A DNA stretch of 64,000 nucleotides from Candidatus Giovannonibacteria bacterium RIFCSPHIGHO2_12_FULL_44_22 (lineage in GTDB: Bacteria; Patescibacteriota; Minisyncoccia; UBA11713; 2-01-FULL-45-33): assembly GCA_001778695.1 (NCBI GenBank), contig MFHU01000003.1, positions 1,521 to 65,520 of the forward strand, in the 5' to 3' direction. Positions 31,301 to 56,665 of this stretch are shown piece by piece. Position 1 is the first letter of the stretch, and each line of letters starts with the position of its first letter. The translations under genes were made by a program, and so were the position numbers. Below the pieces are notes generated by a model. That model made no database searches. It was not told where the DNA came from and saw nothing but the letters and a program-made list of their open reading frames with translations.

Positions 31301-31753
31301 ATGCCATCGCTAAATTTAATACATTCGCCAGTGGATATTGAAGCTAGAAAAAAGCTTTCTTTTCGGGCCGGAGACACTATTCGCGTCACCCAAAAAGTGA
31401 AGGAGGGCGACCCGTCTCGCAAAGGCGGAGCCGAGGCGGAAAAGACACGCCTCCAAGCCTTTGAGGGGATAGTGCTCGCCAGAAAACATGGCTATGAGCC
31501 GGGTGCTACTTTTACCATGCGCAAAGTTTTGGACGGAATCGGCGTGGAGCGAGTTTTTCCATTGTATTCCCCGGATATTGATAAAATAGAAATCAAATCC
31601 AAGACGAAATTCAAACGGGCCAAGCTTTATTATGTCCGCGACCGCGCCGCCAGAGAAATCAGAAAAAAAATGAAGCAAACCCGTTTTGACCCTCGGCTGG
31701 ATTCGGCCCGACAGACCACCCAACCTCCGCAGGTTGAAGTATCTTCACAATAA
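31301..31753 (+). CDS. rplS: 50S ribosomal protein L19
   Basis: FRAGDTIRVTQKV...FEGIVLARKHG...TFTMRKVLDGIGVERVFPLYSP...AKLYYVRD is the typical bL19 pattern, with a short insertion and C-terminal tail. Confidence 0.88.
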   Translation: MPSLNLIHSPVDIEARKKLSFRAGDTIRVTQKVKEGDPSRKGGAEAEKTRLQAFEGIVLARKHGYEPGATFTMRKVLDGIGVERVFPLYSPDIDKIEIKSKTKFKRAKLYYVRDRAAREIRKKMKQTRFDPRLDSARQTTQPPQVEVSSQ

Positions 31754-32183: not shown

Positions 32184-32188
32184 TAGTT

Positions 32189-32263
32189 GGTGCCTATAGC
32201 TTAGTGGTAAAGCACCGCTCTGTGGCAGCGGTAACGAGGGTTCGATCCCCTCTAGGCACCCCA
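32189..32263 (+). tRNA. tRNA-His (anticodon GTG), with encoded G-1 and CCA
   Basis: G-GTGCCTATAGCTTAGTGGTAAAGCACCGCTCTGTGGCAGCGGTAACGAGGGTTCGATCCCCTCTAGGCAC-C-CCA. Anticodon loop CTGTGGC. The 3' end overlaps the recombinase stop. Confidence 0.88.
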
Positions 32264-33865
32264 TCGTGCACGAATGGATGCGAAAGCGTCCATTTTTGCT
32301 TGTGCTGTAAGGGTTTTCTCCAGTTCTAACCTTTTATATTCTTGCTCCAGTGCCGGATAGCCATTATTGATGGGTTGAAACCATTCATTCGGCTCAATAA
32401 AGAGCTTTTCGCCTTGTATTATCGGGGTTTTTCCAAGCGCTAGTAAAATTTCCTTTTGCAGTTCTAACCTTCCTTTCGCTTTTGCCTTAAGAAACTCCGC
32501 ACGGGCGTAAGTTGCGAAATGAAATGTCTTTTCCGTAAGCTCCAGCCATTTATCTGCTCTGCTCTCGGTTTCCCTTAGTTTGCTTTTCATATCGCTTATT
32601 TTGGCTTTAAGCTCGCTTTTTTCTTTGAGGTAAGCCTCATCATCAATAAGTTTGCGGTATCGCATTTTGGTAAGCTCATCTAAATTCGCCTGTGCTTCGG
32701 TTAAAGCCTTGTGGCGAGCTTCGTAAATTTTAGTTCGGTCTTCAATCTCGGTATCATTCTTGCTGTTTAGTCCTTCCAAAGCCCATTCCAAGAACTTCGG
32801 CAAAATAGTGTATTTGTCTATTTCTTGCTTAATTTGCGATTCTAAATTATCTGCCGGTATGTTTTTTATCTGCGGACACTTAAAATCCTTTTTTCTTTTG
32901 GTGCAATGGTAATACGTAAAGGTTTTTGCTTCGCTGGTCTTCTTTATAATTTTAGTATGGCTTTCTGCTGTGTAGAGGCATCCGCATTTCCCGCACCTAA
33001 TCGCTCCAGTAAATGCGAAATTATGCGTTTTGGGTCTAGGTTTGCCACTTTTGCCGAGTATGACTTGCACTTGGTCAAATTCTTCAAGAGAAATCATCGG
33101 TTCGTGCTTGCCTTGATATTGTGAGCCGTCTTTTCGCGCTATAAGCCCTGCGTAAAAAGAATTATTGAAAATTTTGTATATTCCGCTTTGGGAAAGCACG
33201 TTATCACTACTCTTTTTGATTTTTCGTGTCCTAAAACCCCATTCGCTAGTGGCAATTCCCAAAACTTTCATTGCGGAGTAATGACCAGTTAACATCAAAC
33301 TCCACATTTTCTTTACCAAGTTAAATCGCTCTGGGTCTTTGATAATGGTATGGTTAATTTTGTCGTTTAAGTATCCAAGCGGTGCTAGGCTCGGTAGCCA
33401 CCCTTTTTCTAGCTTGCTTTGTAAGCCTCGCTTAGTGTTCTTACTTAAATCCAAAATAAATTGGTTGGCCACGCCGGTCTCAACGCTGAATATCAAGACA
33501 TTGTCTTCCGGCACATACTCTCGGTCTATGGTGCGGATGGATTTTAATATGCCTTGCTGGAGCATCCAGCTTAAGTTCCCGCTATCAATAGGATTGCGGG
33601 ACAAGCGGTTAATTTGCCAGCACAAAATACCTTCTGCCTCACCGCTTTTAATTTTATTTAACACCTCGTCAAATACAGGGCGGTTGTCAGGTTGCTTGGC
33701 TGACTTTGCTTCCGTATAGATTTTTACAATATGCAAATTTAAGTCCTTGGCTAACTGCTTTAGCCGGTTTACTTGGTCATCAATGGACTGCACCTGCCGG
33801 TCTTCGCTTTCCGACGACTTCCTTGCGTATAAAAAGTATTTAATTTTTGGTTTATCTTGATTCAT
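32252..33865 (-). CDS. large serine recombinase (phage-integrase type)
   Basis: 537 aa. Resolvase catalytic domain (YARKSSESEDRQVQSIDDQ with catalytic Ser), recombinase domain, Cys-rich zinc ribbon (CGKCGC...HC), C-terminal coiled coil. Confidence 0.88.
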   Translation of the reverse strand: MNQDKPKIKYFLYARKSSESEDRQVQSIDDQVNRLKQLAKDLNLHIVKIYTEAKSAKQPDNRPVFDEVLNKIKSGEAEGILCWQINRLSRNPIDSGNLSWMLQQGILKSIRTIDREYVPEDNVLIFSVETGVANQFILDLSKNTKRGLQSKLEKGWLPSLAPLGYLNDKINHTIIKDPERFNLVKKMWSLMLTGHYSAMKVLGIATSEWGFRTRKIKKSSDNVLSQSGIYKIFNNSFYAGLIARKDGSQYQGKHEPMISLEEFDQVQVILGKSGKPRPKTHNFAFTGAIRCGKCGCLYTAESHTKIIKKTSEAKTFTYYHCTKRKKDFKCPQIKNIPADNLESQIKQEIDKYTILPKFLEWALEGLNSKNDTEIEDRTKIYEARHKALTEAQANLDELTKMRYRKLIDDEAYLKEKSELKAKISDMKSKLRETESRADKWLELTEKTFHFATYARAEFLKAKAKGRLELQKEILLALGKTPIIQGEKLFIEPNEWFQPINNGYPALEQEYKRLELEKTLTAQAKMDAFASIRARWGA

Positions 33866-33997
33866 AAAAACTTGAAGGGACGGTCTGGTTCACCCAATCA
33901 CTTGCTCCGAAGAGTAGCCTACTGGCAGACCGCCCCTTAAAGGACAGTAAGCAATAAAAAATCTTCGGACATTTATTGTGATTAAAGGTGAACATTA

Positions 33998-35224
33998 TCA
34001 TTGTATATTGTCTTTTTTGTCCTTGCAAGTGGATAAATACTCTAACGAGATTGGCTCAAATTTTTGCAACTCTTGGCCTATGTATAGTGTTCCATCCGAG
34101 AGCGGCAAATCGTTGGCCAGTTTTTGTGCCGTAGCCAACTTTTCATCCAAGCGGCTATCTGATTTTTTAGACCACACCTTGCCCATTTCTTTGCGGAGTG
34201 TTTTTGCCCCGTGTTTTTTTATAATTGAAGCAAGGGCGTAGCTGATAAGTGCCTTATTATAGCTATGGACGCTTTGCTCTTTCTCTTTTGCTCTTTTCAA
34301 AATGTGAAGTAATAAATCTATATCGCCGTTTGAGTTTAATAATGCAATTTGATTTTCTGGTTTAGCAAGTATTCTTTGCCACGATGCATTCAAAATGTCT
34401 TTCCACAAATTTTCGGTAAATAAATCGGAAAGTTTTACAGGCGTGGCATAGGGTCTTTTAAGAAATCGGTTAACTTCACTCCTAATGGTCTGCGCCTTAT
34501 TTAGACGATATTCGTATCTGAAAACCTCCGTATTTTGTAAATTATAAAGTTCAATGACTTCTTTTTCATATGCCGTTTTTTGTTTTTCCAAACTTTTACC
34601 GCTTGGCCGGAGCATTTCTTGTATTTTATCGTAAAAAGCCCATTCTCTAGTTCCGCAAAAAAGATGGAGCGTTTCGTTTTCGTTTTGGTTTTTGCTTCGT
34701 ATGTCCTTTGTATTTCCATACGCCTTGCCAATATCTACGCGCGACAACTCTGCTAATATGGGGCGCAACGGACGGTCTGCGGGCAGTGGTATATTTTTAC
34801 AAAAATGCACCACGGATACAGAAGCATCGGCAATGGTTTGCGAAGTGATGTATATACCAATCTCTGGCAAGCGTTCCATCAGCGTAGTTAACAATTTGTG
34901 GTAGTCGCTCGGTAGGGCTTCCTGTAGGCTGTTTTCGTTTATCAGCTTTGGCGCAGAGAACTTTAATTTCATATCGTAATATATGCTTCTGCTTCGGTTG
35001 TCTGCGTTTTCGTATATTTCAACCCCCGGGTAAGTTAGACCATTATCTATGTCGGCGTGTAGAACAAAACTCCGCAGGTAGGGGACTTTTTTATTGTCTG
35101 CTCGCTTTCGGTCTTTTGGTGTCAAATCCGCGTAAGGTCTGGTGGAAAATTCGTGATTAAACATAGCCCAGTCTGCTACTCGGAATTTATCTATGCCGCG
35201 AATGCGAATTATGACTGTATCCAT
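33998..35224 (-). CDS. putative rolling-circle replication initiator (Rep_trans-like)
   Basis: 408 aa. HLFCGTREWAFYDKIQE resembles the Rep_trans motif (xYIGSRxSxxFxRVYDK). Assignment tentative. Confidence 0.4.
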   Translation of the reverse strand: MDTVIIRIRGIDKFRVADWAMFNHEFSTRPYADLTPKDRKRADNKKVPYLRSFVLHADIDNGLTYPGVEIYENADNRSRSIYYDMKLKFSAPKLINENSLQEALPSDYHKLLTTLMERLPEIGIYITSQTIADASVSVVHFCKNIPLPADRPLRPILAELSRVDIGKAYGNTKDIRSKNQNENETLHLFCGTREWAFYDKIQEMLRPSGKSLEKQKTAYEKEVIELYNLQNTEVFRYEYRLNKAQTIRSEVNRFLKRPYATPVKLSDLFTENLWKDILNASWQRILAKPENQIALLNSNGDIDLLLHILKRAKEKEQSVHSYNKALISYALASIIKKHGAKTLRKEMGKVWSKKSDSRLDEKLATAQKLANDLPLSDGTLYIGQELQKFEPISLEYLSTCKDKKDNIQ

Positions 35225-35229
35225 ATTTA

Positions 35230-35529
35230 TTAAATTATTTTGTTGTCCTTAAATTTCTTGGAATCCTTCTGCGGTGTTTCTTGGCGGTCTCTTTGCACCG
35301 CTTCGTATTCTTCTTGGGTTATCGGCTTATAAACCAGCTCAACTAGACGCATCAGCTTAATCCCTTTTTCAAGGGCTTCTTTCCGGCTGATTTCTTTTCC
35401 GAATTGCTCTTTATAGAGCGTTTGGAATTTGGTTATCTGTGCGTCTGACAGCATATACAGCCATTCTAAAAAACCCTCTAAGCCAAAAAGAGCCAGAGGG
35501 TTTGAGAGGGTTTTTGGGCATTCAGACAC
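35230..35529 (-). CDS. hypothetical small helical protein
   Basis: 99-aa ORF between the rep-like and large hypothetical genes. Confidence 0.35.
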   Translation of the reverse strand: MSECPKTLSNPLALFGLEGFLEWLYMLSDAQITKFQTLYKEQFGKEISRKEALEKGIKLMRLVELVYKPITQEEYEAVQRDRQETPQKDSKKFKDNKII

Positions 35530-35595
35530 AAAAAATAAAAGGGCTTTTTGTCAGCCCCTCAATACCGAAACAAGCTGTTGTCCAAAATTTACTCT

Positions 35596-37239
35596 CTAAC
35601 CCTCTACTTCAAGCCACATATTTTGCTTCCTGTCGTCAAACTGATATTTTAATTTACCCCGTAGTTTCTCGTATCTTTCCTTTTGCAATTCCTTTTTTGT
35701 ATTTTCTATAATCTGCAACATTCTTTGTGCTCTGGTATTAGAATCGTTTAGCGTTGTGTCGTTTTTGTCTTTAGGCAACCTTATTGATTCAAAAACAGAA
35801 GCAATAGTTCTATGTGCGCCAAATGGACTGCAAAGTATATCTAACAACCTATAATGTCTTGAATTTAGCCCGCCTATTTTTATTGGGGTTGCTTGTTTGT
35901 AAAACTTAAAATAACCCTGCCCATTTCTAGCTTCTGTATAGGGTTTAGGGTTGTCTTGCATTAAGACTTCGTCTGCGGCGGGTTTTGGTGATACCATCTC
36001 ACTCACGCTATGCAAAGGCGTAAATGCGTCAAATTGAAGGCGAAGTATATTTATTTTTAATAGAGCATTGTTTTCAAGCTTGAGCACAAATTTATAAATA
36101 AAATCGTCCAGTTGTAACCCCAATTTTTTGCCTTCCGTTTCAAGCCATTCGTTCAAGATTTCTGCTCTGTATTGTTCTGAATCTCTATTAAATTCCCCTG
36201 CCGCTACACCAAACTCTGCGTTTGATATATTTGGACTTTGTGAGCTTTGCGTCCCCTTACGCCTCAACTTGTCTATTTCATAAATTTCATCTCGCAATAT
36301 TACAATAAGTTTTTCTCCAACAATTCTGTTTACGGCGTTCACCATAATTTTAGCTTCTTCTTTATCAAATTCTGCCCTGTTTAGTGTTGATAATGGTATT
36401 TTAACAATGCATTGCAATTTACCGCAGTCAGCTAACTCTATTTGGTTATAAACCAATTCAACAAATTTTTTGATTTTTCTTAAGTTATCTTCAGAAAACC
36501 CGTCTAAATTTGCTTTATTTTTTACTCCGGCTATCATTCTGGTTTGCATTGCCTCGCCAGATTTTTTGGCGGCTGTATATTTTGCCGCTTCTTTCAACCA
36601 TTCTTGGTAGTCGTCTTTGCTGGCTGAGGCGGTCAATACACTATTTATATATTCAAAAAGTTTATTTGCGGTTTCCTTGCCGTTAATATCGTAATAAATA
36701 GGATTGAGAAATTCGGTGAGAACTACCGACAAGGGTTTTGCCCGCTTTCTCGCATAGGCGTGCCGAAACAACAAATCCGTAAGCGTGTAACTTCCCTCAT
36801 TAAGAAACAACGCAACATTATCAAATTGAGCAAATGCGACAACAGCCCTCAACCATTCGTCTTTGCTAAATAATTTTTCAATTTGTTTGGCAATAGAAAA
36901 AACCGCCTCTCTTGGTATAAACGGTGTTTGCCGCAACACATAGTGCTCCTTTAGGTATGCTACTTGCTTTTTGACCGCTTCTTGGTCAACCAGTAATGCG
37001 TCATAAGACATTTCGTGGGCTAGATTCCCATACTTATCCTCAATTTCTACTGGCTTGTCTTCCCAAACAAGCAGTTTCTCATATTCAAATTGCTCGCAAA
37101 TCTCCTTTGCTTCGTTGGCGGTCATATCAAATTGTTTTGCAAAAGCATCGGTTATGTCGGGGAGTTCATAGTAGCCATCCCGCAAAAGTTTTTCTGCGAA
37201 ATAAAGCATTTTTGTGCACGAGAGATAATCAATTTTCAT
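35596..37239 (-). CDS. hypothetical protein (547 aa) with LVWEDKP motif shared with the Type III Mod N-terminus
   Basis: No NTPase or nuclease motif seen. Segment EKLLVWEDKPVEIEDKY parallels KKYGLVWEDKPEDVVEQ at the start of the adjacent mod gene. Confidence 0.45.
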   Translation of the reverse strand: MKIDYLSCTKMLYFAEKLLRDGYYELPDITDAFAKQFDMTANEAKEICEQFEYEKLLVWEDKPVEIEDKYGNLAHEMSYDALLVDQEAVKKQVAYLKEHYVLRQTPFIPREAVFSIAKQIEKLFSKDEWLRAVVAFAQFDNVALFLNEGSYTLTDLLFRHAYARKRAKPLSVVLTEFLNPIYYDINGKETANKLFEYINSVLTASASKDDYQEWLKEAAKYTAAKKSGEAMQTRMIAGVKNKANLDGFSEDNLRKIKKFVELVYNQIELADCGKLQCIVKIPLSTLNRAEFDKEEAKIMVNAVNRIVGEKLIVILRDEIYEIDKLRRKGTQSSQSPNISNAEFGVAAGEFNRDSEQYRAEILNEWLETEGKKLGLQLDDFIYKFVLKLENNALLKINILRLQFDAFTPLHSVSEMVSPKPAADEVLMQDNPKPYTEARNGQGYFKFYKQATPIKIGGLNSRHYRLLDILCSPFGAHRTIASVFESIRLPKDKNDTTLNDSNTRAQRMLQIIENTKKELQKERYEKLRGKLKYQFDDRKQNMWLEVEG

Positions 37240-37394
37240 AGTGATAGTAATTTAACAAACTAAGCCATTTTTCTCAATGTTGTCCCGAATTTTGAGCTAT
37301 TACTTCAATTTGCGCCCAAATAGTGATATTTTACATTTATACAATTAAATATGGTTATTGCCTAACCCTCGTGAATTAAAAACTCCGAGGTATG

Positions 37395-37537
37395 GCAGAA
37401 AAACTGTTCAGGTATATTAAGCTCTTCGTCCAGAGCACCTGAACAGTCATATTCCGAAAGGAGTATGGGTGGCGAAAGCCATCGCTGGCGGAGAGCTTTG
37501 TGTTTTCCGCCAACAAGGCATAAATAAAACTGTTCAG
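37395..37537. promoter_or_regulatory. three copies of a CTGTTCAGGT 10-mer (two direct, one inverted) upstream of mod
   Basis: AAAACTGTTCAGGTAT at about 37400 and again immediately before the mod ATG. ACCTGAACAGT (inverted) at about 37440. Candidate operator or phase-control sites. Confidence 0.35.
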
Positions 37538-37539
37538 GT

Positions 37540-39147
37540 ATGCCAAAAAAATTACAATTACAAGATTGGACAAAAGAGCAACTCGTTGATGAGGTTGCGC
37601 GACTTCGTAAACGCAAGAAATACGGCCTTGTCTGGGAAGATAAGCCGGAAGATGTTGTTGAGCAATGCAAGACGGAATTGCCGGTGCTCAAGGAAGTGAA
37701 GAATAAGGCGATTGCGAAAGACAAAAACGGCCCCGTGAACATTCTGATTGAGGGCGACAATTACCACGCTCTCTCGGTCCTTAATTACACGCATAAAGGC
37801 AAGATTGATGTCATCTACATTGACCCGCCGTATAACACTGGAAATAAAGATTTTATTTACAATGACAATTTTGTAGATGCGGAAGACCCATACCGACATA
37901 GCAAATGGCTTTCGTTTATAGAAAAGCGATTAAAATTGGCACATTCTCTATTAAAAAATAGTGGTGCGATATTTATTTCTATTGATGATAACGAGGTGAC
38001 GCAATTGAAATTATTATGTGATGAGATTTTTGGCAAGAGAAATTTTGTTGAATGTATATCTTGGGAAAAGAAATCATCTGCAAAAGGAGTGCCTCCAAAG
38101 AATATGATTGTAAATGTCCACGAGTATATTTTGGTCTATCAAAAATCAGATAAATTTTCATTCTTGGGCGAGCCGAGAAGTGAAGAAAGTTTTAGCAATC
38201 CAGACAATGACCCACGAGGGCCGTGGCGAAATACGAATATAAAAAGCACGGTAAAGGACAGGTCTCACGCATTTTTAATCACCGACCCAAAAACTGGCAA
38301 TGTTTTTACTGACACTTGGGCGTTTAGCAAAAATGAGCTTGAAAGATTGATAAAAGAAAGGTATTTAATTTTCCCAAAAAATAAAAACGGCCAAGTAAGA
38401 GCAAAAGAATTTTACAATGAATTTAAAAATGCAAACATTCCGATAAAATCATCTTGGGGTTTGTTTGATAATCAAAAAAATACCGAGATGTTAAAAAAAA
38501 TTCTCGGCGATATAGTTTTCTTAAATCCCAAGCCGTTAGATTTGATAATTTATTTACTGAAAAGCGCGGCCAGCAAGGATGCTGTTGTTTTGGATTTTTT
38601 TGCTGGTTCGGGGACAACTGTTCACGCTTTATTAGTGGTTAATAGGCAGGATAAGGGTAAGCGTAAGTTTATTCTTTGCACTAACAATGAAAATAATATC
38701 GCAACCGATGTTTGCTATCCAAGAATAAAAGCAGTGATTGACGGGCATAAAGATTATCGGGACATTACAGGAATACCAAGCAATCTCAAATACTTCCGCA
38801 CAGCGTTTGTCGGCGCAGAGCCGAATGATAAAAACAAAGAAGCGTTGACCAAGCAAGCAACCGAAATGCTCTGTATGCGCGAAGATACCTTTGAGTCGGT
38901 AAAAGAGACAGGTGCGGTAAAGATTTTCAAAAACCCAAAACAGCATACGGGCATTGTTTTTGACGAGGATGCTATCCCCGCACTCAAAAAAGAAATTTCC
39001 AAGATTGGCGGCGTATGGAGCGTGTATATCTTCTCTCTTGGTGATGACACTTTTGAGGACGAGTTTGAGGATATGAAAGAGAAAATAACTGTTGCGCCGA
39101 TACCCGAAGCGATTTTGCGGGTCTATCGGCGTTTATTCAAACCATAA
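37540..39147 (+). CDS. mod: Type III restriction-modification system methyltransferase (Mod), beta-class N6A/N4C MTase
   Basis: DVIYIDPPYN (motif IV) precedes FFAGSGTT (motif I). 535 aa. Confidence 0.85.
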   Translation: MPKKLQLQDWTKEQLVDEVARLRKRKKYGLVWEDKPEDVVEQCKTELPVLKEVKNKAIAKDKNGPVNILIEGDNYHALSVLNYTHKGKIDVIYIDPPYNTGNKDFIYNDNFVDAEDPYRHSKWLSFIEKRLKLAHSLLKNSGAIFISIDDNEVTQLKLLCDEIFGKRNFVECISWEKKSSAKGVPPKNMIVNVHEYILVYQKSDKFSFLGEPRSEESFSNPDNDPRGPWRNTNIKSTVKDRSHAFLITDPKTGNVFTDTWAFSKNELERLIKERYLIFPKNKNGQVRAKEFYNEFKNANIPIKSSWGLFDNQKNTEMLKKILGDIVFLNPKPLDLIIYLLKSAASKDAVVLDFFAGSGTTVHALLVVNRQDKGKRKFILCTNNENNIATDVCYPRIKAVIDGHKDYRDITGIPSNLKYFRTAFVGAEPNDKNKEALTKQATEMLCMREDTFESVKETGAVKIFKNPKQHTGIVFDEDAIPALKKEISKIGGVWSVYIFSLGDDTFEDEFEDMKEKITVAPIPEAILRVYRRLFKP

Positions 39148-39148
39148 T

Positions 39149-41398
39149 ATGGCTTTTCAACTTACAAAATATCAAGACAAAGCGGCCCGCGAACTTCTGA
39201 TTAAATCAGAAGAACTTTTGAGCACTGGCAATCCCAAGACACTTGTCTTTAAGGCACCAACTGGCTCTGGAAAAACAATAATTATAGCAGAGTTTTTGAC
39301 ACGATTTTCGGATGACCACGACCATTCGCCTTGTGCGTTTATATGGGCCGCTCCTCACAAATTGCACGAGCAGAGCAAGGAGAAACTTGAGCAGTATTTT
39401 GAAAACACGCGAGCAATGGAATGTTCGTTTTTTGAGGATTTGGACGACCGGCAAATCGGCGAAAACGAAATCTTATTTTTTAACTGGGAGAGCATCCGGC
39501 GCGAAGACCTTATTTATATCCGAGAAAACGAACAGGACAATAACCTTTCAAGCGTTCTTGAACGAACACACAAAGCTGGACGAAAAATTATTTTAATTAT
39601 TGATGAAAGCCATCTCCACGCACCTGCCGAAACTTCTCAAAATCTCAAAAACGATATTGCGCCTGACCTGATTATAGAAACATCCGCAACCCCAACCCTT
39701 CCCGGAGACGATAATGTTACGGTGCAAATTGAAGCTGTTAAAGCGGAAGAAATGATAAAGAAAGCAGTGATACTCAATGAGGATTTCAAAAGCGTGGTGC
39801 GCCGTGGCCGCACCGAAACCATAAAGAGCGAGCTTGCCGGTAGTACCGATGATACTGTTTTGCGAGAAGCGTTGAAGAAGCGCGAGGAGCTTGTCCGAGC
39901 ATATAAAGCAGAAGGTGTTGCCGTAAATCCATTACTTCTTATCCAGTTGCCGAACCGTATTGGTCAGGCGGAGGAAGACCGCCAAACAATAATTGTACGG
40001 ACTCTCAATGATAAGCACGGCATCAGTGTTGAAAATGGCAAACTTGCCTTCTATATTTCAGAAAATAAAGAGAACTCTGAAAATATCTCTCGGAATGATA
40101 ACGAAGCCGAGGTTTTGATATTCAAGCAGGCCGTTGCACACGGCTGGGATTGCCCGCGAGCGCATATACTTGTGCTCTTTCGTGAGTGGCATAGCCCTGT
40201 GTTTTCCATTCAAACGCTCGGCCGGATTATGAGAGTGTCGGAGCCGGAGCACGGGTATTACGATAACGACATACTCAATTTTGCTTATGTTTATACGAAC
40301 ATTGACGACATTGTAATTCAAGAGGACATCGGTGGCGGATATGTAGTGATACATACCAGCAAACGAATTGCGAAATACAAGTCGGTTGAATTGCCATCGG
40401 TTCACCGCAAACGGCATCGTGAGCAGACGCGCTTGAGCCCGCTTTTTACACGGCTATTTCTTATGGAAGCGCAAAAATATACAAGCAAGGATAAAAAGAA
40501 AAAGGGCCTTGAAAAGATAATAAAACCCAAAGGCCAGCGTGTTCAGCAGGCGTTTATTTCTGACTGGAAAGCAGAAAACATAGATACTATTGCAGGCGAG
40601 CGCATACAAGCAGATGTGCAGATTGAAAGAGCAAGCGATATGGACCTTCAAAGGTTGTTTGATTATTTTGTGCGCAAAAATCTCTCTCCGTTTCACCCCG
40701 AAGACCGGTCCGTGGGCCGTCTGAAAGAGTCAATCTATAAGTTTTTTGATAAAGAGATGAGAATGACGAGGGCCGAGCATTTCCGGGATATCATAAACAT
40801 TGTCTTGAGCGAAGATAACCGGCCGCATTTTGAGGCAGTGATAGATAGTGCCAAACGCGCCTATATTGCGACAGCAGAGAAACGAGAGAAAGAAATAGTG
40901 GAAGATGTTTGGGAAGTGCCGGAGCGTGTCGCTTTCGGAAAAGGATATGTTGAAGCAAAACCAAAAAAGAAAAAATCCGTAATGAAGCCGTTTTTTTCTG
41001 ACGAACGCTGGCAATCTGAAAAAGCATTTATTGACTTTTTGGATAAGCCGCGAAATGATGTATCGTGGTGGTTCAAAAATGGAGACCGAGATGCGACTTT
41101 CTTCGCCGTGCAGTATAAAGATGGCAATGACTCGGCCCCGTTTTATGTTGATTTCGTGGTTATGATGAAAGACGGGAGTATCGGGCTATTTGACCCACAC
41201 GGGCTTCATCTGGCCGATTTTGGTGCGAAATCAGATGGTCTGCGAGCATACATAGCCCACTTGAAGAAAAAGGGCCGCAAGGTATCCGGTGGTATTATTG
41301 CGAATACCAAACCCGATTATACCGGCCAGTGGATGGTCTATGAAGGCAACGGAAAAAACGCGCGAGAGGGCAACTGGGATAACTGGAAACAACTTTAA
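39149..41398 (+). CDS. res: Type III restriction enzyme Res subunit (SF2 helicase-nuclease)
   Basis: Walker A KAPTGSGKTII, DEAH-like IIDESH, further helicase motifs. Start immediately after the mod stop. Confidence 0.82.
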   Translation: MAFQLTKYQDKAARELLIKSEELLSTGNPKTLVFKAPTGSGKTIIIAEFLTRFSDDHDHSPCAFIWAAPHKLHEQSKEKLEQYFENTRAMECSFFEDLDDRQIGENEILFFNWESIRREDLIYIRENEQDNNLSSVLERTHKAGRKIILIIDESHLHAPAETSQNLKNDIAPDLIIETSATPTLPGDDNVTVQIEAVKAEEMIKKAVILNEDFKSVVRRGRTETIKSELAGSTDDTVLREALKKREELVRAYKAEGVAVNPLLLIQLPNRIGQAEEDRQTIIVRTLNDKHGISVENGKLAFYISENKENSENISRNDNEAEVLIFKQAVAHGWDCPRAHILVLFREWHSPVFSIQTLGRIMRVSEPEHGYYDNDILNFAYVYTNIDDIVIQEDIGGGYVVIHTSKRIAKYKSVELPSVHRKRHREQTRLSPLFTRLFLMEAQKYTSKDKKKKGLEKIIKPKGQRVQQAFISDWKAENIDTIAGERIQADVQIERASDMDLQRLFDYFVRKNLSPFHPEDRSVGRLKESIYKFFDKEMRMTRAEHFRDIINIVLSEDNRPHFEAVIDSAKRAYIATAEKREKEIVEDVWEVPERVAFGKGYVEAKPKKKKSVMKPFFSDERWQSEKAFIDFLDKPRNDVSWWFKNGDRDATFFAVQYKDGNDSAPFYVDFVVMMKDGSIGLFDPHGLHLADFGAKSDGLRAYIAHLKKKGRKVSGGIIANTKPDYTGQWMVYEGNGKNAREGNWDNWKQL

Positions 41399-41400
41399 CT

Positions 41401-41586
41401 TTGAATATGGCAACATTTGGTAGCGGGACGCCGGAGAGCCCGGACAACAAATCTATAAGAGCCCAGCTTGAGGAGCTCAAGAAGCTCAACTCATCTACTG
41501 CTTCTTACAACAAGCTCATCATTGGCATAGCGTTGTCCACGCTTATCGTGAGCATTGTCGGCGTGATAATTGCGCTATGGAAATAA
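41401..41586 (+). CDS. small single-TM protein
   Basis: 61 aa with a C-terminal TM helix. Tightly packed after res. Confidence 0.3.
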   Translation: MNMATFGSGTPESPDNKSIRAQLEELKKLNSSTASYNKLIIGIALSTLIVSIVGVIIALWK

Positions 41587-42098
41587 ACAAAGAAACAATA
41601 AAAGAGTATGCCAATAGATACGATAGGCGTAGTAAGGGAACAGATGATGAGATTGCGGCAAATGAAATAACGAAATGGTTTAAGACGCATAGGTATTTGG
41701 ACAAGGAAAGATTTATGAGAGTTGCGCTTTGGAAGTCAAAAAGACCACAAAGGCATTACGCAAGCAATGACAATGCGATTGTTAAAGAAATCACCCAGTT
41801 TAGTTTGGCAACGAAAAACGAGGAGGTAAGATTAAAAGTCCTTTTTGCCATCAACGGCGTGTCATATCCTATCGCCTCGGTCATTCTTCACTTCGCATTT
41901 CCAGATAAATACCCGATATTGGATTTCAGAGTGATATGGTCTCTCGGTATAAAACAGCCCAAAAGCTATAATTTTGCTTTTTGGCAAAAGTATTGTGATA
42001 ATGTAAGGGATATTTCAAAAGAAATGGGCGAAAGCATAAGAACGGTGGATAAAGCTCTATGGGAGTATTCAAAAGAGCATCAAACTAAAGAGAAATAA
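41577..42098 (+). CDS. hypothetical protein with helix-hairpin-helix-like segment (OGG/EndoIII-like pattern)
   Basis: LKVLFAINGVSYPIASVILHFAFPDKYPILDFRVIWSLGI resembles the LxGVGxxTAxxIL...PVDxHV HhH-GPD pattern. Tentative. Confidence 0.35.
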   Translation: MEINKETIKEYANRYDRRSKGTDDEIAANEITKWFKTHRYLDKERFMRVALWKSKRPQRHYASNDNAIVKEITQFSLATKNEEVRLKVLFAINGVSYPIASVILHFAFPDKYPILDFRVIWSLGIKQPKSYNFAFWQKYCDNVRDISKEMGESIRTVDKALWEYSKEHQTKEK

Positions 42099-42266
42099 TG
42101 ATGTAATCACTTTGCATTTCTTCCCAATAGTAATTGAAGATATATATTTAGATTGGGAATCAAAAATAAAAGAAGATGGGACTATTGAAGTTTTGCTCAC
42201 CAATTTTTATAAGCCATAAATAACACAATTAGTGCGAGATGGTAAATGGTATAGTATGTTAGAAAT

Positions 42267-42710
42267 ATGACCAAATTATTAAAGGAGCAATTTGTTCAGG
42301 ATTGTATTTCTAACTATTTATCAAAACTCGGCTACCACAAACAAGAGCCGAAAGGATTAAGAGAGCACGGAGTTGATATAAAAGTTAAGCATAAAAATTT
42401 CGGCAGGTATTATTTGGTTGAGGTTAAGGGAGACCCCGGTAAAGACGTAAAATCACCGGGCGGTAGCAGGAATAGCTGTATGAACTCGGCAATCGGGCAA
42501 ATTATTACCAGAATGCATACCAACCGCAAAAGGGGCTATAAATATGGTTACAAATACGGCATCGGTTTCCCGATTTCTTTTAAGGAAAGAGTTATTAACA
42601 AAATACCCTACGATGTCTGCGACAAACTAAATCTTAATTTGTTTTTTGTTCACCCGTCTGGGGTAGTTGAAGCATATAATGATAAAAAATTAAAAGCATT
42701 ACAAAAATGA
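42267..42710 (+). CDS. hypothetical PD-(D/E)xK-like nuclease-fold protein
   Basis: HGVDIKVKH...YYLVEVKGD gives a D...E-x-K arrangement typical of restriction-endonuclease-like folds. Tentative. Confidence 0.35.
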   Translation: MTKLLKEQFVQDCISNYLSKLGYHKQEPKGLREHGVDIKVKHKNFGRYYLVEVKGDPGKDVKSPGGSRNSCMNSAIGQIITRMHTNRKRGYKYGYKYGIGFPISFKERVINKIPYDVCDKLNLNLFFVHPSGVVEAYNDKKLKALQK

Positions 42711-42988
42711 TTTCCAATTCAAACGAAGAAAAATCAGCGAAGAAAACCGATGATTTTAAGTTGAGCGATTTGTGTAAGTGCGGACATACATACGGCTCGC
42801 ATCCCTTCCTAAAAATACGCACCGAAGGCTTTCCAATGCCGCCCGCTTATTCTTGCATTAGTTGTAAATGCCAAAAATTTGAACTAAGTAGCAAGTATAT
42901 TACCGAAGACCGGAAACAAGAACTGCAACAGCTATTAGTAAATGCCGTGAAAGAAAAGCTAAGGAACAAGAGTGAAAATAACGAGTAG
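42707..42988 (+). CDS. Cys-rich small protein (putative zinc-binding)
   Basis: CKCGH...CISCKC arrangement. 93 aa. Confidence 0.4.
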   Translation: MISNSNEEKSAKKTDDFKLSDLCKCGHTYGSHPFLKIRTEGFPMPPAYSCISCKCQKFELSSKYITEDRKQELQQLLVNAVKEKLRNKSENNE

Positions 42989-43027
42989 CGGTAGAAAAAC
43001 TTTTTAGAACAAGTTAGATTTGGCTAT

Positions 43028-43225
43028 ATGAAAACAATCAAAGAAATATCGGAAAAGTGGGTTAAAAACTCACTTCGGGCATATCTTGAGGGCGAAAAAG
43101 ACCTCAAGTGGATTCAAGGCATTTTACGAGGAATGAGCAAGAACGAAGTAATGGGGCTTTTAAGCTCTCTACAATATGGCTTACCGGAGAGGCGCAATGA
43201 ATTGAATCAATGGCTCAATACTTAG
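43028..43225 (+). CDS. hypothetical small protein
   Basis: 65-aa ORF in a co-directional tight array. Confidence 0.3.
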   Translation: MKTIKEISEKWVKNSLRAYLEGEKDLKWIQGILRGMSKNEVMGLLSSLQYGLPERRNELNQWLNT

Positions 43226-43237
43226 TTAAGATAATTT

Positions 43238-43510
43238 ATGTTTTTCAAAAGCAGATTAAAGGAAATAGAAGAGGAAATTCTGAGAAAACGGAATGGTATT
43301 TTTGGGGATGGCACTGTCAATTTTGGCAATTCTTTTAATGCACGAAAAACAGAAATTGAGGCACAGGTTGCGATTTTAGAAGCGGAAAGACGTTTCATTA
43401 TAGATAGGAGAAATGGTTGGAAACCGAAAGTTATTTGGGATGTGCTTGTCCCAATTGTCGTAGCTGTGGCAACTGCTTATATCGTGGCCACTTTCGTCTC
43501 CGGGGCTTAA
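43238..43510 (+). CDS. hypothetical protein with C-terminal TM anchor
   Basis: 90 aa. Coiled-coil N-terminus, then TM helix (VIWDVLVPIVVAVATAYIVATFV). Confidence 0.35.
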   Translation: MFFKSRLKEIEEEILRKRNGIFGDGTVNFGNSFNARKTEIEAQVAILEAERRFIIDRRNGWKPKVIWDVLVPIVVAVATAYIVATFVSGA

Positions 43511-43689
43511 TAGTTTATGACCAAACATTACGACAAAGAAACGAGCGAAGAAATAGACGAAAATATCCACGAGCTGATGGAAAGCCACAATTTAGACAAA
43601 GATGAAGCGGAAAAAGTCCAAGAAATTATGGACGATTACGACTTGGACGAAAGCGATGCCGTTGAACTCAAAGATGACTTATAAAATTT

Positions 43690-43965
43690 ATGTTAAATTT
43701 CAGCCCCAAAAAATGCCTTTGTAATGTTGCCGATTGCGGCAAATGTTTAACTCTGGGGTGCACAAATGATAGCTGTAGCACTCATCGCATAGTAACTAAA
43801 TGGCGATACAGAAAACACCTTTTGGAAAGTTTAACAAACAAGATTGAAAAAATGCGTGACAGCAAACCTGAAAAAGAATTGGCGACTTTACGAAAAGATA
43901 TAAAAACTTGCAAAGAAGAAGTTAAAAGGTTGGGCGAGGTTATGGGTATGAAAAATAATGAGTAG
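43690..43965 (+). CDS. zinc-ribbon small protein
   Basis: N-terminal CLCNVADCGKCLTLGCTNDSCSTH (six Cys plus His), then a coiled coil. Confidence 0.4.
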   Translation: MLNFSPKKCLCNVADCGKCLTLGCTNDSCSTHRIVTKWRYRKHLLESLTNKIEKMRDSKPEKELATLRKDIKTCKEEVKRLGEVMGMKNNE

Positions 43966-44015
43966 CGGGATGAGGCTGAGTAGTAAAAATTACAAAAACC
44001 TGATATTTATTAAAT

Positions 44016-44612
44016 ATGCCTTTGGACAATTCTCAAAATCAAGCAACAAACGCAATCTATGTCTTTATTGACGCATCCAATTTGTGGGAGGCATTCAAGG
44101 CGAAGGGTAGATTTTTAGATTTTGAGAAGACGACAAAGTATATTAAAGAAAAGTTTAGCGGAACATCTATAAAAGCTTTTTACTATACGGCTTATCCAGC
44201 AGAGGGCACAAGAAATTACAGTTTGGACGGCAAACATAAATTTTTTACATACCTAAAAAAGGCATTGGGATTCGCAGTTATAAAGAAGGAGCTGAAAAGA
44301 ATCAGTGTAATAAATGAGCACGGCGAAGCAATAGAAGAAAAAGGCAATATGGATGTAGAGATGACCATAGATGCTATGCTTCATTTCAAAAAATATGACA
44401 CGGCGATTTTCTTTACTGGAGATTCCGATTTTCTGGCACTTGTAACATATTTGAAAAATCACGGGAAAAAAGTTTTTATATTTTCTTCAGAAAACAATGT
44501 GTCGCAGGAGTTGAGAACTGGCGCAAATGGCTATACCGATATTCTGGATGTTGATGGTGTCTGGGGCAAAGAGTTGAAACACAGAGCCGAATTAGAAAAG
44601 GAGGGTAGATAA
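44016..44612 (+). CDS. NYN-domain (LabA-like PIN-fold) putative RNase
   Basis: IYVFIDASNL, VEMTIDAM and FTGDSDF acidic residues match the NYN/LabA pattern. Confidence 0.78.
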   Translation: MPLDNSQNQATNAIYVFIDASNLWEAFKAKGRFLDFEKTTKYIKEKFSGTSIKAFYYTAYPAEGTRNYSLDGKHKFFTYLKKALGFAVIKKELKRISVINEHGEAIEEKGNMDVEMTIDAMLHFKKYDTAIFFTGDSDFLALVTYLKNHGKKVFIFSSENNVSQELRTGANGYTDILDVDGVWGKELKHRAELEKEGR

Positions 44613-44615
44613 AAA

Positions 44616-44639
44616 GCAACCCTCCTCGCGGAGGGTTGC
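44616..44639 (+). terminator. stem-loop after the NYN gene (terminator-like, no T-tract)
   Basis: GCAACCCTCC-TCGC-GGAGGGTTGC perfect 10-bp stem. Confidence 0.4.
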
Positions 44640-45060
44640 CCTTGGATGTTATACCCTTTCAGTTATGACTAACCGAAAGACAATATTAGTGTAGCAAATC
44701 AGCATACCCCGTCAATAACAAGTATTGGGTATAAATAGTGAATAGCGGGGGCGGGGTAAGTTTATGCGTTGGAGTAAGTTCTTAAATCCGGCACATAAAT
44801 ATATTCCTTTTGTCTTGCTATAATAGTTCTAACGTCCTCTACAATGCGACCCAAAATTATAAAAACAAAATTTCTAAATAAAAAAGGGCCCCGCGCGTGA
44901 AAGCGAAGGGCCTCAAAAGATGATAAACATAGCAAAGATAATTTTTTAATCGCAAGTCAGGATTATTAGTCCGACTAAAGTCTTTCGACTTCCCGCAAGG
45001 TTTGATCTTATCTCCCCCGGGGCCAATTAATATTTTATATTTGCCAGTTTTGTTTGGAAA

Positions 45061-45876
45061 CTACGCTGCTTCAAGGTCTTCTATATAGACCTGGGCGTAA
45101 TGTATGTCGTCTAAATGCCCACCACAATTTTGGTCCTTAAGATTATTCTCTCCACAAAGGGGGCAACAACGGCGTGGAACTATTTTCCCGGACGCGCTTA
45201 GATCGGACCTGTTAGAAATCGGAAATGTATATTTTTTTCCGAATTTCCAAACAATAATGCTATGATCTACAATCTCTTTGTTTCTGAGATTCCAATGGTT
45301 TATCCCAAGAGCCCCTCCTAGGCCAAGTATGAAAGCAACAATTAACCATACCTGATCCATAAAAGACCATTCGCCAAACCTAGTCACGGTCTGTTCCTTG
45401 GCGAGCAAGGCCTCCTTTAGCTTAACGTTTTCTACGCTCAACCTATCTCTTTCGCGAGCTCTTTCAACCAGTTCTTGACGTATTCTTTGTAATTCGTTTT
45501 CTTTCTTGTCGCGATCCGCGTTGGCCGTTTTTAGGTCATTTTCAAGCGTCGCTATCCGCGCAGATCTAGCTTGGTTTTCACCTCTTTCAGCATCCGCCAT
45601 ATAAATTTGGGCGGACACATTGGCCATTCTCTCTTCCGGAGATTGGCTGCAATTTTTCGGTAGAACAATCTCTTGGCCGATTGGTAATTTTCGCGGGTTG
45701 GCCAACGTCAAATTGCTGTCAATCATTATATCCGCAATCCATCCCGGATGGCAACCGGCTTTTTTCATAACAGAACTTAATGTCTGGCCTCTGGCCAGCT
45801 TCACAACATCTTGCGCTGAAGCCATTCGCGGCTCCAGCGCTCCAAACAAAATAAACAAACCGAGTACTAATTTCAT
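45061..45876 (-). CDS. LysM-domain membrane protein with coiled coil and C-terminal Cys cluster
   Basis: Start at the Met after FtsZ. Signal/TM N-terminus, LysM-like VKLARGQTLSSVMKK...IGQEIVLP, coiled coil, TM helix, C-terminus RRCCPLCGEN...CGGH. Confidence 0.55.
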   Translation of the reverse strand: MKLVLGLFILFGALEPRMASAQDVVKLARGQTLSSVMKKAGCHPGWIADIMIDSNLTLANPRKLPIGQEIVLPKNCSQSPEERMANVSAQIYMADAERGENQARSARIATLENDLKTANADRDKKENELQRIRQELVERARERDRLSVENVKLKEALLAKEQTVTRFGEWSFMDQVWLIVAFILGLGGALGINHWNLRNKEIVDHSIIVWKFGKKYTFPISNRSDLSASGKIVPRRCCPLCGENNLKDQNCGGHLDDIHYAQVYIEDLEAA

Positions 45877-45877
45877 A

Positions 45878-47311
45878 TCACCGTCCTCCTTTGTTGGTAT
45901 TGATTCCAATGAAATGCGGTTGATCGGCCGCTTCCACTTTCCTTTGGTTACTATCATTTCCATCGGCAATTCTTTTGCCGGTGTATGCCTCTACTCTTTT
46001 TCGGACATCTTCTTTTCTATCTATAAATTCTTGGCGGGGTTTTTTCCCACACCACCTAGGAAGAATGCCCCTTTGCATTTCCAACCACTCATTCGCTAAA
46101 GATTGAGGAACTTTAAGCTGGGTCATCTTCGCGGAGCTCCTGCCATTTTCTGCGACTATGACAGGAAAAGATATTGACACCAGAGCATCCTCCGTGTCTT
46201 CAGGAAACGGTACTTTGATCACCGGTTTGAGCCGGACGATTTCCGGCGGCTTTTCTTTTTTAGCCACGCCAACAACTCCAGTTTTTTCAATTGGCTGATC
46301 AGATGGCGGTTCCTTTGCTACAACGATCATGGCAACCCATTTCTTGCGGTCCTCAACTTGTTCGCGAGTGCTTACGTGAAATTCTACATTCGGCCTTCTG
46401 TCAGGATTTATAGCCTCTTTCACTTGGCCCGTAACTTTTTCAACTTCTCCCACAGACCAATTTCCATGAAATAAAATTAGTCCGCTTTCGGCCTTTTTCA
46501 CTATCTCTGTATCCTGATATCTGTTCTGAACGAGCTCTTTTCCTATTATTTTAGGATCGCACGGGGCGTCTTTATCTTCAAAGAAAAAGCTCCCGTACTG
46601 GACGTAATGTCCAAGAGCCAGGCGCGTCGTATAATCTTTAAGATCGGAATTTATGCCGTCTCCGACCTCCAGAATTAATTCGCGGAGAAAAACCATTACC
46701 AGCTGTTCTAAACAGCTTTTATTGATTATATTCCACGCTTCGCTTACCAATACATCCCTGTTCTCGATGTTATTATTGTATATCACAATCGTCGGAACAG
46801 CGTCTCGTATCGTATTTAAAGCGTCGTTGGCCCTGTTCATCCTGCCTTCAAATGGAAAGGGCATTGTGACTATTGTCAGCATGGGGATCTCTTTATCTTT
46901 CGCCATTTGCGCCACCGCTGGAACACCGCCAGTGCCCGTTCCGCCTCCGAGTCCCGCAACAATCAAGAGCGTTTGCAGTTTGTCTAAAAAATGCGATATC
47001 TCTTCTCTATCTTCTTCGATGGCTTTGGCTCCTATTTGCGGATCGCCACCAGCGCCCAGGCCTTTCGTTAGTTCATAGCCCAATTGGCACATGTACAACC
47101 TCTCGCTATTTTCCCATCCCTCGCAGCCTTTATTCTCTTGAAACAGTTTTAAATGTCCGGCATCTGTGTTCGCGGCCAAAATGTGCACGTGAGGATGATT
47201 TTCCGGCGGGAATGAATTAATTATTAGGCCGGCGTTGTTCACGCCGCACCCGCCAATAAACGCTATTCCTAAATTAACCGGACCTGTTTTTAGTTCTTTG
47301 TTTGGCTCCAT
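45878..47311 (-). CDS. ftsZ: FtsZ/tubulin-family GTPase with long charged C-terminal extension
   Basis: IGGCGVNNAG, NTDAGHL, AGLGGGTGTGGVPAVAQMAKD (tubulin signature GGGTGTG), T7-loop region. About 160 extra C-terminal residues rich in K/E/P. Confidence 0.8.
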   Translation of the reverse strand: MEPNKELKTGPVNLGIAFIGGCGVNNAGLIINSFPPENHPHVHILAANTDAGHLKLFQENKGCEGWENSERLYMCQLGYELTKGLGAGGDPQIGAKAIEEDREEISHFLDKLQTLLIVAGLGGGTGTGGVPAVAQMAKDKEIPMLTIVTMPFPFEGRMNRANDALNTIRDAVPTIVIYNNNIENRDVLVSEAWNIINKSCLEQLVMVFLRELILEVGDGINSDLKDYTTRLALGHYVQYGSFFFEDKDAPCDPKIIGKELVQNRYQDTEIVKKAESGLILFHGNWSVGEVEKVTGQVKEAINPDRRPNVEFHVSTREQVEDRKKWVAMIVVAKEPPSDQPIEKTGVVGVAKKEKPPEIVRLKPVIKVPFPEDTEDALVSISFPVIVAENGRSSAKMTQLKVPQSLANEWLEMQRGILPRWCGKKPRQEFIDRKEDVRKRVEAYTGKRIADGNDSNQRKVEAADQPHFIGINTNKGGR

Positions 47312-47706: not shown

Positions 47707-47869
47707 TTTCCCCCCTTTTCTGTTATTCGGTTTTAGTTTGTTTATTTTCCTTTAGTTTTCAAGGTATTTGAACCTGAAACGATGCTAGCAAATAGCCGAT
47801 TTTCTGTCAATATCTGCTTTTTTATTTGAAATAAAAAATATATAATGGATATGTTAGCAGAAAATTATT

Positions 47870-56443: not shown

Positions 56444-56479
56444 TTTTCTTTTTGGTAAAAAGTTGTATAATTTCAAAAT

Positions 56480-56552: not shown

Positions 56553-56560
56553 AAAATATT

Positions 56561-56648: not shown

Positions 56649-56665
56649 AAAATAAATTAAAATAA

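Follow-up and report, generated by a model that had tools for sequence, protein, structure and literature searches.

The 64-kb stretch of Candidatus Giovannonibacteria DNA analysed here (Parcubacteria, Candidate Phyla Radiation, CPR; hereafter the window, to which all coordinates refer) carries at the 3' end of a tRNA-His gene a block of genes that is probably an integrative, rolling-circle-replicating mobile element, that is, an integrated plasmid resembling the integrative and mobilisable elements (IMEs) of other bacteria. The block encodes a large serine recombinase, a putative rolling-circle initiator (p408), a Type III restriction-modification (R-M) system and two covarying RNA structures. 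The closest relatives of the host lack it, and a nearly identical copy occupies the cognate site in a second species.

The CPR, or Patescibacteria, comprise a large share of bacterial diversity, have tiny genomes and mostly lack CRISPR, and the gain and loss of defence genes in these organisms is poorly understood. The statement in the first-pass annotation of this DNA that integrated elements are rarely described in CPR-like genomes is partly outdated, as hundreds of genomic islands, one of them with an R-M system, have been reported in 125 Patescibacteria genomes (PMC12455944). These islands were predicted from composition, without a mechanism, and the words "recombinase," "integrase," "tRNA," and "rolling" are absent from the text of that paper. 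Our literature search found islands with R-M systems in Patescibacteria and no description of the element backbone presented below.

Insertion at tRNA-His and transfer between species

The relatives of the window TsaD protein belong to Giovannonibacteria or Parcubacteria metagenome-assembled genomes. Of the relatives with usable contigs, L004 (LCKG01000014) and L011 (JAUYMO010000016) are the closest, their p82 being 91–95% and their LeuRS 73–82% identical to the window proteins. Both keep the order LeuRS-TsaD-PsiS-L19-tRNA-Leu-p82-tRNA-His, and their tRNA-His is identical to that of the window over positions 32188–32261. A Nudix-like gene lies 3' of tRNA-His in both, and the whole block from the recombinase to the NYN gene is absent, so that the genes next to tRNA-His in the window are not conserved there in the relatives. 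L004 continues past the Nudix-like gene with VIT and other genes found at 47.9–53 kb of the window; homology between the two contigs ends at 32261 and restarts at 47818. Comparison of these contigs places the element at the 3' end of tRNA-His, as an insertion absent from the closest relatives. The G+C profile, which had been proposed as a check on this region, also marks the block as foreign: equally long host windows have 43.4 ± 0.45% G+C and the block 40.2%, about 7 standard deviations lower, and in tetranucleotide distance the block reaches 0.236, about three times the highest host value (0.082).

An exact-sequence look-up of the recombinase retrieved L032, a locus of another assembly in which the element is 99.991% identical over 11,679 nt. 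The identity spans window positions 32187–43865, from tRNA-His to the end of the fetched stretch. The chromosomal genes of L032 are only 70–79% identical to those of the window host at the protein level (TsaD 75%, LeuRS 70%) and the flanks 72–78% identical in DNA, which by this comparison assigns L032 to a different species. The presence of such a copy amid such flanks indicates recent transfer of the element between species, to the cognate tRNA-His site. A recombinase fragment 69% identical to that of the window is found in L006, in the same overlapping position at its tRNA-His, while in L074 and L091, from other Parcubacteria, related elements with recombinases 58% identical to that of the window occupy the same tRNA-His/L19 site.

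The large serine recombinase gene overlaps the 3' end of tRNA-His, as had been noticed in the first-pass annotation, all of whose listed features were recovered where it had placed them. The overlap is 12 nt, the last three codons and the stop codon of the recombinase sitting in the 3' acceptor strand of the tRNA, and in 16 of 16 scorable loci of the element family the recombinase open reading frame (ORF) enters the tRNA by 10–61 nt. All three expected domains were matched: Resolvase (PF00239, 3.3e-18), Recombinase (PF07508, 1.6e-5) and Zn_ribbon_recom (PF13408, 8.4e-11). Residues 2–487 match PHROG 95 "integrase" (1.5e-64), and the catalytic motif YARKSSESEDRQ (R15-K-S17-S18, of the Y-x-R-x-S type), whose loss would have spoken against an active enzyme, is present; the nucleophilic serine motif lies within residues 9–24 (KYFLYARKSSESEDRQ). 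The best NCBIfam matches, to CcrB, CcrA and CcrC, are weak (78 bits vs. a cut-off of 900).

An encoded CCA is present in four of four element-bearing tRNA-His genes, while the two empty sites read ...GGCACCC followed by ACG. This difference places the crossover at or upstream of 32260–32261, the last nucleotides of the tRNA therefore being supplied by the element. The hairpin directly 3' of the tRNA reads as an element-supplied replacement terminator; a hairpin and T-run follow the tRNA in most of the listed element-bearing Asp, Asn, Gln and His junctions, inside the coding end of the recombinase.

Two further observations concern the target. A perfect 10-bp palindrome, TCGTGCACGA, lies at 32264–32273, immediately 3' of the encoded CCA, with ACGTGTACGA as its equivalent in L006; it may belong to the core site of the recombinase, or be due to chance. 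The window contains 15 tRNA genes, several of them tightly clustered (56479–56649; 59601–59843). Where tRNA genes are so dense, repeated targeting by such elements may be more likely, many related elements being flanked by Asp and Met clusters.

The p408 protein and the family backbone

The gene next to the recombinase had been labelled Rep_trans-like, and this label holds at the superfamily level, by fold and by relatives, and not at the level of the Pfam family. The Rep_trans model (PF02486) proposed for its identification gave no match to p408 at E ≤ 0.01 and none in 57 close relatives at E ≤ 1; two of the 57 sequences of a wider alignment (A6, comprising 56 distant relatives and the window protein) matched it, at E of about 1e-3. 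No match of p408 was found in Pfam (E ≤ 0.01), PHROG, NCBIfam, PADLOC or PDB sequences, and a profile of 57 homologs likewise matched nothing in PDB. The only Pfam family matched repeatedly by p408 relatives (14 of the 114 scanned) is PF05144 (Phage_CRI, the N-terminal domain of G2P), with matches in 5/57 close relatives (best 8.7e-6) and 9/57 sequences of A6 (best 2e-7). The window protein itself does not match PF05144, and the link, as drawn from these sequence profiles, is a transitive one at the superfamily level.

The AlphaFold model of p408, built from the homolog alignment (pLDDT 89, pTM 0.87), has the fold of the Rep_trans catalytic domain. The matches of this model in BFVD are three unnamed viral proteins (best E 3.9e-8) and, as a weak one, a "GST REP" of Inoviridae. 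Residues D2, T3, S90, E102, K143, N144, Y198, K200, E238 and R240 are invariant in both close and distant (20–26% identity) relatives. The motifs FYDK and FRYEYRLKK, compared by eye, resemble IYNK and WRVEIELKR of pT181 RepC, in which the tyrosine is catalytic. From the modelled fold and these relatives, we conclude that p408 is probably a diverged member of the Rep_trans/G2P superfamily, outside formal Pfam membership. The p408 family comprises 1102 clusters at 50% identity (E ≤ 1e-3), with 435 at E ≤ 1e-30, and thus appears as a Rep clade of more than 1000 clusters that is recognised by no HMM library.

A scan of JGI metagenomes with the p408 profile yielded 80 loci, 74 of them with distinct p408 DNA. 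In the counts of neighbours, the denominators include only those loci whose contig extends far enough to show the neighbour. A large serine recombinase lies immediately downstream of rep in 45 of 51 such loci, and an abutting tRNA on the opposite strand follows in 16 of the 24 with further room (Asp 12, His 2, Gln 2); Asn, Glu and Trp tRNAs also adjoin recombinases in other loci. The two hypothetical proteins listed earlier after the putative Rep were recovered as p99 and p547, of 99 and 547 aa. Homologs of p99 are located directly upstream of the rep homolog in 30/61 loci, and this protein, without a match in the family scans, is a candidate Rep accessory or directionality factor. Only 14 homologs of p547 are found, all in CPR, sharing the N-terminal ~220 aa; in L093 and L096 they are encoded 2 kb upstream of rep, and the family varies in what occupies the p547 position at the start of the leftward operon. 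No P-loop is seen in its sequence. Across these loci the backbone is fixed in gene order: a variable first gene, p99, Rep, a structured spacer, the large serine recombinase and the tRNA.

The spacer between the rep and recombinase genes (33866–33997) has a conserved structure in at least 28 distinct loci. From 28 sequences, RNAalifold predicted a 17-bp helix with compensatory changes in 14 pairs and conserved G.U pairs, followed by a U-run and, 5–8 nt later, by the ATG of the recombinase. A second helix of 9 bp, GUUGACCCA/UGGGUCAAC, crosses the first and also covaries. The minimum free energy of the window copy is -42.8 kcal/mol. With its conserved G.U pairs, the structure is sense-strand-specific. 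Judged from its sequence, the spacer reads as an attenuator and as an element occluding the ribosome-binding site (RBS), which would limit integrase expression; possibly it is instead an origin on the displaced strand.

A smaller member of the family is the tRNA-Trp element of L112 (1679–7458), ~5.7 kb long and with a distantly related recombinase (25% identity). A 20-nt piece of the tRNA-Trp 3' end is repeated directly on either side of it. No other family member examined has a clear attL/attR pair, and the element could be used as a minimal model.

Table 1. Organization of the element at tRNA-His and of the adjacent cassette (window coordinates).
Feature	Position	Strand	Evidence or remark
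tRNA-His(GUG), G-1, encoded CCA	32189–32263	+	ARAGORN, Rfam (32190–32263); integration target, attL side
Hairpin and U-run directly 3' of tRNA	32268–32299	+	-18.8 kcal/mol, z -5.2
Large serine recombinase (integrase), 537 aa	32252–33865	-	Pfam, PHROG 95, catalytic motif
Structured rep-int spacer	33866–33997	-	RNAalifold covariation
p408, putative rolling-circle initiator, Rep_trans/G2P superfamily, 408 aa	33998–35224	-	Fold and relatives
p99, small backbone protein, 99 aa	35230–35529	-	No family match
p547, first gene of leftward operon, 547 aa	35596–37239	-	No known domain
LOOT RNA (RF03000) with 3' extension	37359–37508	+	Rfam part 37359–37483; leader of cargo operon
Copy of LOOT P2 5' strand at mod start codon	37526–37541	+	Exact repeat of 37400–37415
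Type III Mod methyltransferase	37540–39147	+	N6_N4_Mtase, PADLOC MTase_III
Type III Res	39092–41398	+	ResIII, PADLOC REase_III; alternative ATG 39149 gives 749 aa
Eight small co-directional ORFs	41407–43965	+	Accessory cargo
NYN-domain (LabA-like) putative RNase, last gene of rightward operon	44016–44612	+	PF01936
Strong hairpin, 10 bp, G+C-rich	44616–44639	+	-19.8 kcal/mol, z -3.25
Adjacent three-gene cassette including terminator	44883–47706	-	Transmembrane (TM) 138 aa, FtsZ-like 477 aa, coiled-coil/TM 271 aa

LOOT RNA and the cargo operon

Two features of the element, the LOOT RNA at 37359–37483 and the structured rep-int spacer, were not part of the first-pass annotation. The LOOT copy of the window is a full-length, high-scoring member of RF03000 (91.2 bits vs. 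a gathering score of 46.4, model positions 1–121) located 56 nt upstream of mod on the same strand. LOOT has been described as a metagenome-derived RNA with six helices, without function or context (PMC7779021, PMC7657543). Searches with Rfam and with our own model found it in 18 distinct element loci, and neither in host-only loci nor elsewhere in the window. Whatever the cargo, LOOT in every case stands at the head of the gene that follows. This is mod in the window, L075, L083, L098 and L074, and in L091 it is a SIR2-HerA operon. With respect to rep the orientation of LOOT varies, the copies of L056 and L093 being on the rep strand and the others opposite. LOOT was considered as a single-strand origin, and this function is disfavoured, as its orientation tracks the downstream cargo gene, not rep, and its U.G pairs make the structure strand-specific.

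Unlike the published RNA, the LOOT copy of the window has a defined context, at the head of a cargo operon of CPR integrative elements, and an additional helix with a U-rich tail. In this 12-bp helix, located beyond the Rfam model, the apical part of P2 (37419–37430) pairs with 37487–37498. It is 93.5% paired in 18 sequences, with nine pairs changed on both sides and conserved U.G pairs, and by this covariation appears as well supported as the accepted helices. The helix crosses P2 and would therefore form either a pseudoknot or an alternative, terminator-like state.

The 5' strand of P2, AAAACUGUUCAGGUAU, is repeated exactly over the mod ATG (37540). In 7 of the 18 LOOT loci a copy of this strand, 8–14 nt exact and lineage-specific in sequence, abuts the next start codon; these are all the loci shown with methyltransferase cargo, plus L129 and L056. 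The start-codon segment of ~16 nt contains 27 of the 34 repeated 8-mers. This leaves the 3' strand of P2 two possible partners, one within LOOT and one at the translation start, an arrangement that, on sequence grounds, looks like the design of a cis-acting switch. This start-codon-proximal copy of the P2 strand in R-M-bearing elements goes beyond the published description of LOOT.

LOOT is also present in the sibling Giovannonibacteria contig L003 (MFIM01000001). At 2556–9204 of this contig, another large serine recombinase, 26% identical, overlaps the tRNA-Glu 3' end by ~40 nt, LOOT at 4991–5110 heads a divergent gene cluster, and there is no p408 homolog; LOOT and the recombinase/tRNA overlap therefore occur also in elements without a p408-type Rep. 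A separate observation concerns L033 (Logan SRR29904088), a contig otherwise 100% identical to the window, which lacks 101 bp (37273–37373), and with them the putative promoter of LOOT and its first 15 nt, as well as 113 bp (31640–31752) at the 3' end of the L19 gene. These indels are either strain-level variation or an assembly artefact.

The complete Type III mod-res pair announced in the first-pass annotation was recovered by both Pfam and PADLOC. Mod matches N6_N4_Mtase (PF01555, 1.9e-38, 133 bits) and MTase_III of PADLOC (322 bits, 2e-96), and Res matches ResIII (PF04851, 4.8e-20, 72.6 bits) and REase_III (59 bits, 4.4e-17). The res gene is co-directional with mod, overlapping or abutting it at 39092–39149. 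Its product bears the precomputed label PF27151 (YagJ) and is 67–77% identical to the Res proteins of related elements L045 and L075.

The run of small co-directional cargo genes ending in a strong hairpin was likewise found as described. It consists of eight ORFs, coding for proteins of 59, 173, 147, 93, 65, 90, 55 and 91 aa, and of the NYN gene (PF01936, 1.3e-23; PADLOC NYN, 3e-11). Scans of Pfam, PHROG, NCBIfam and PADLOC gave no informative matches on function for the small ORFs, p99 or p547; p173 is the only small ORF with a family match, to phrog_24538, of unknown function. The product of p147 (42267–42710), without a family match, carries a D...E-V-K motif typical of PD-(D/E)xK nucleases. 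Also without a family match, p55 (43517–43684) has 22 D/E residues in 55 aa, an acidity reminiscent of DNA-mimic anti-restriction proteins by analogy. C-terminal TM helices are present in p59 and p90, while p91 and p93 are Cys-rich, and homologs of p91, p90 and p147 are found in other elements, L082 and L063.

Across the family, the cargo located in the divergent operon is variable. Type III R-M systems are present in many loci, with N6_N4_Mtase and ResIII in L074, and Type I-like enzymes are found in L043. At the tRNA-His/L19 site of L091 (4230–8368), LOOT is followed not by a Type III R-M system but by a SIR2-like gene and a HerA-type ATPase gene; the cargo slot therefore exchanges whole defence systems.

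Proposed life cycle, right boundary and significance

The features described above suggest the following life cycle. The serine recombinase would join attP, overlapping its own 3' end, to attB at the tRNA 3' end, and on integration the element would give the tRNA its last nucleotides (CCA) and a new terminator. Excision, needing a directionality factor, would free a circle, which the Rep_trans-like protein would copy by rolling-circle replication after nicking the origin via Tyr198. The terminator-like, RBS-occluding helix of the rep-int spacer would keep recombinase expression low. The divergent cargo operon (Type III Mod-Res, small ORFs and NYN) would be transcribed through the LOOT leader, whose pseudoknot/terminator helix, together with the P2-strand copy at the mod start codon, would gate cargo expression. 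The R-M system would protect the host and stabilise the element, and cell-to-cell movement may proceed by competence uptake, mobilisation or packaging.

Several results weigh against this scheme. The hhalign comparison of p408 with a single pT181 RepC sequence was not significant, and the Rep assignment draws on the fold and on transitive weak HMM matches, p408 itself matching nothing. For the replication origin of the element, the spacer 33866–33997 is no more than a candidate. Pfam, PHROG and NCBIfam scans detected no transfer genes and no type IV secretion system (T4SS) or coupling-protein domain in any ORF of 32252–44612. No attR was found: a generic search returned no repeat, no 22-mer of the junction has a direct or inverted match in 44.6–47.9 kb, and neither another copy of the tRNA 3' end nor a B' sequence of the empty sites nor P/P' symmetry was seen. 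The right end therefore lies somewhere within 43866–47817. Among the contigs examined, no circular or excised copy and no terminal overlaps were observed, and the element is present in all 23–24 contigs per look-up of this host strain, which gives no sign of excision in this population.

Of the other explanations, the one that survives best, while still improbable, is a strict integrative mobilisable element, in which p408 would be mainly a MobT-like relaxase nicking oriT for helper-driven conjugation and not a maintenance replicase. The MobT relaxases of Tn916, ICEBs1, ICESt3 and many streptococcal IMEs are Rep_trans relatives able to do both jobs (PMC5704250). The Rep_trans fold of p408 and the recent transfer between species are consistent with such a role, but the element has no coupling protein (TcpA/FtsK-like) or T4SS gene, p547 has no P-loop, and the flanks of related loci contain nothing of the kind except HerA of the SIR2-HerA pair. 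Conjugation machinery is not known in Parcubacteria.

The first-pass annotation had proposed an integrative plasmid or phage-like element; the former fits these data and the latter does not. A prophage or phage satellite, such as an inovirus-like single-stranded DNA element with a G2P-type initiator, is very unlikely. It would account for the matches of p408 relatives to Phage_CRI, for those of the p408 model to viral proteins in BFVD, including the weak one to Inoviridae, and for the TM helices in two of the small ORFs. However, Pfam and PHROG scans of the element ORFs detected no capsid, portal, terminase or morphogenesis ATPase gene, and in PHROG, apart from the integrase, only one unknown family and, weakly, NYN were matched. 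Only two weak relatives of the family occur in 2.9 million IMG/VR contigs, and across the family it is the defence cargo slot that is conserved, not the small ORFs. Least credible of all is a decayed, immobile defence island at a tRNA hotspot, with p408 and the non-coding structures as relics or unrelated in function: attR and an excised form were not found, the island is in all contigs of this strain and the FtsZ-like cassette next to it marks the locus as a variable hotspot in any case, but all ORFs are intact, a 99.99% identical copy lies at the cognate site of a second species, and hundreds of diverged copies show purifying selection and covariation in the backbone proteins and in the two structured RNAs.

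For the integrated plasmid, the right end has a minimum at 43865, set by the identity with L032 and limited by the fetched stretch, and a maximum at 47817, set by L004. The G+C content is back at the host level right of the hairpin 44616–44639, and an end at about 44640–44880, which agrees with the limit set in the first-pass annotation, is the probable one. The extent favoured with confidence is thus from 32262 to about 44640–44880, ~12.4 kb, the right end being uncertain, with 47.8 kb possible. The Nudix gene of the empty sites is missing from the window, which indicates that the ancestral right junction was remodelled. Exact-protein look-ups of NYN, p91, FtsZ-like, VIT and p138 returned only the window's own host context and no right end of L032, and a P-arm search in tRNA-Asp elements found no consistent site.

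To the right of the hairpin lies an operon of three genes (45061–47706, minus strand), with its own terminator at 44883–44912 on the same strand. This cassette is probably a separate accessory unit of the same variable hotspot and not part of the element, because it has its own terminator and a host-like G+C content (42.9%), occurs as a triad without recombinase or Rep in chromosomal contexts of L134 (6031–8755) and L135 (7044–9972), and never appeared in the L032 host context in the exact-protein look-ups. It is absent from L004 at this locus. The FtsZ-like protein, a diverged GTPase of the FtsZ/tubulin family, has only four close relatives in 5.8 billion sequences and lacks the match to the C-terminal domain of canonical FtsZ; its PDB match to FtsZ (1.5e-24) covers the N-terminal domain only, and its TIGR00065 score is 134 bits vs. 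a cut-off of 295. A TubZRC-type partition system belonging to the element was considered and rejected, since the protein resembles FtsZ most, its small partner carries a TM helix at the N terminus and not a helix-turn-helix, and the triad is chromosomal without a replicon. The cassette recurs in three unrelated CPR chromosomal contexts, its third protein being a coiled-coil protein of ~270–300 aa with a TM segment, and may be a membrane-remodelling FtsZ-like system.

Among known systems, IMEs with a Rep_trans/MobT protein and an integrase are the nearest described kind. Like the element, the IMEs of streptococci and other Firmicutes are 5–20 kb long, combine an integrase with a Rep_trans-type nicking protein, carry cargo that may comprise R-M or toxin-antitoxin systems and integrate at the 3' ends of conserved genes, their excised form being thought to be kept by rolling-circle replication (PMC5704250). 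Among the IMEs, however, tRNA 3' ends are targets of tyrosine integrases, and site-specific IMEs with serine recombinases disrupt dispensable genes (PMC5704250), whereas here a large serine recombinase acts at a tRNA 3' end, with its ORF ending inside the tRNA. The element further differs from IMEs in its CPR host, in a Rep too diverged for PF02486, in the lack of oriT, coupling protein or helper, and in the LOOT leader and the structured rep-int spacer, which have no counterpart there. The rolling-circle plasmids of the pT181/pC221 family (RepC, RepD, RepDE, RepSTK1; PDB 4cij, 4cwc) are also among the closest known systems. Filamentous-phage G2P (PF05144) and integrative inoviruses similarly combine rolling-circle initiators with small integrating replicons; unlike inoviruses, the element has no morphogenesis or coat module and integrates by a large serine recombinase at tRNA genes. 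In SCCmec-type cassettes a large serine recombinase (Ccr) likewise inserts cargo at the extreme 3' end of a housekeeping gene that is kept active, but SCC elements lack such a Rep_trans initiator, and the gene they target is rlmH instead of a tRNA.

It is a tentative possibility, on balance doubtful, that p408-recombinase elements are the principal CPR-specific vehicle for defence exchange among Patescibacteria, with LOOT as their riboregulator. If true, LOOT would be a pseudoknotted leader, in which the extra helix and U-tail would form a conditional terminator and the P2 3' strand would alternatively occlude the methyltransferase start codon; it would then time or limit the expression of R-M and other toxic defence cargo on entry into a new, unmethylated host.

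Overall, the locus represents a concrete, recurrent vehicle that combines a serine integrase with a rolling-circle replicon and a swappable defence slot. The overlap of the recombinase gene with its own attachment site would provide precise targeting of tRNA 3' ends, and the orphan LOOT RNA gains a genomic context and a testable regulatory model. Recombinases with natural tRNA targets may interest genome engineering, and the backbone could seed genetic tools for CPR bacteria, which have almost none now.

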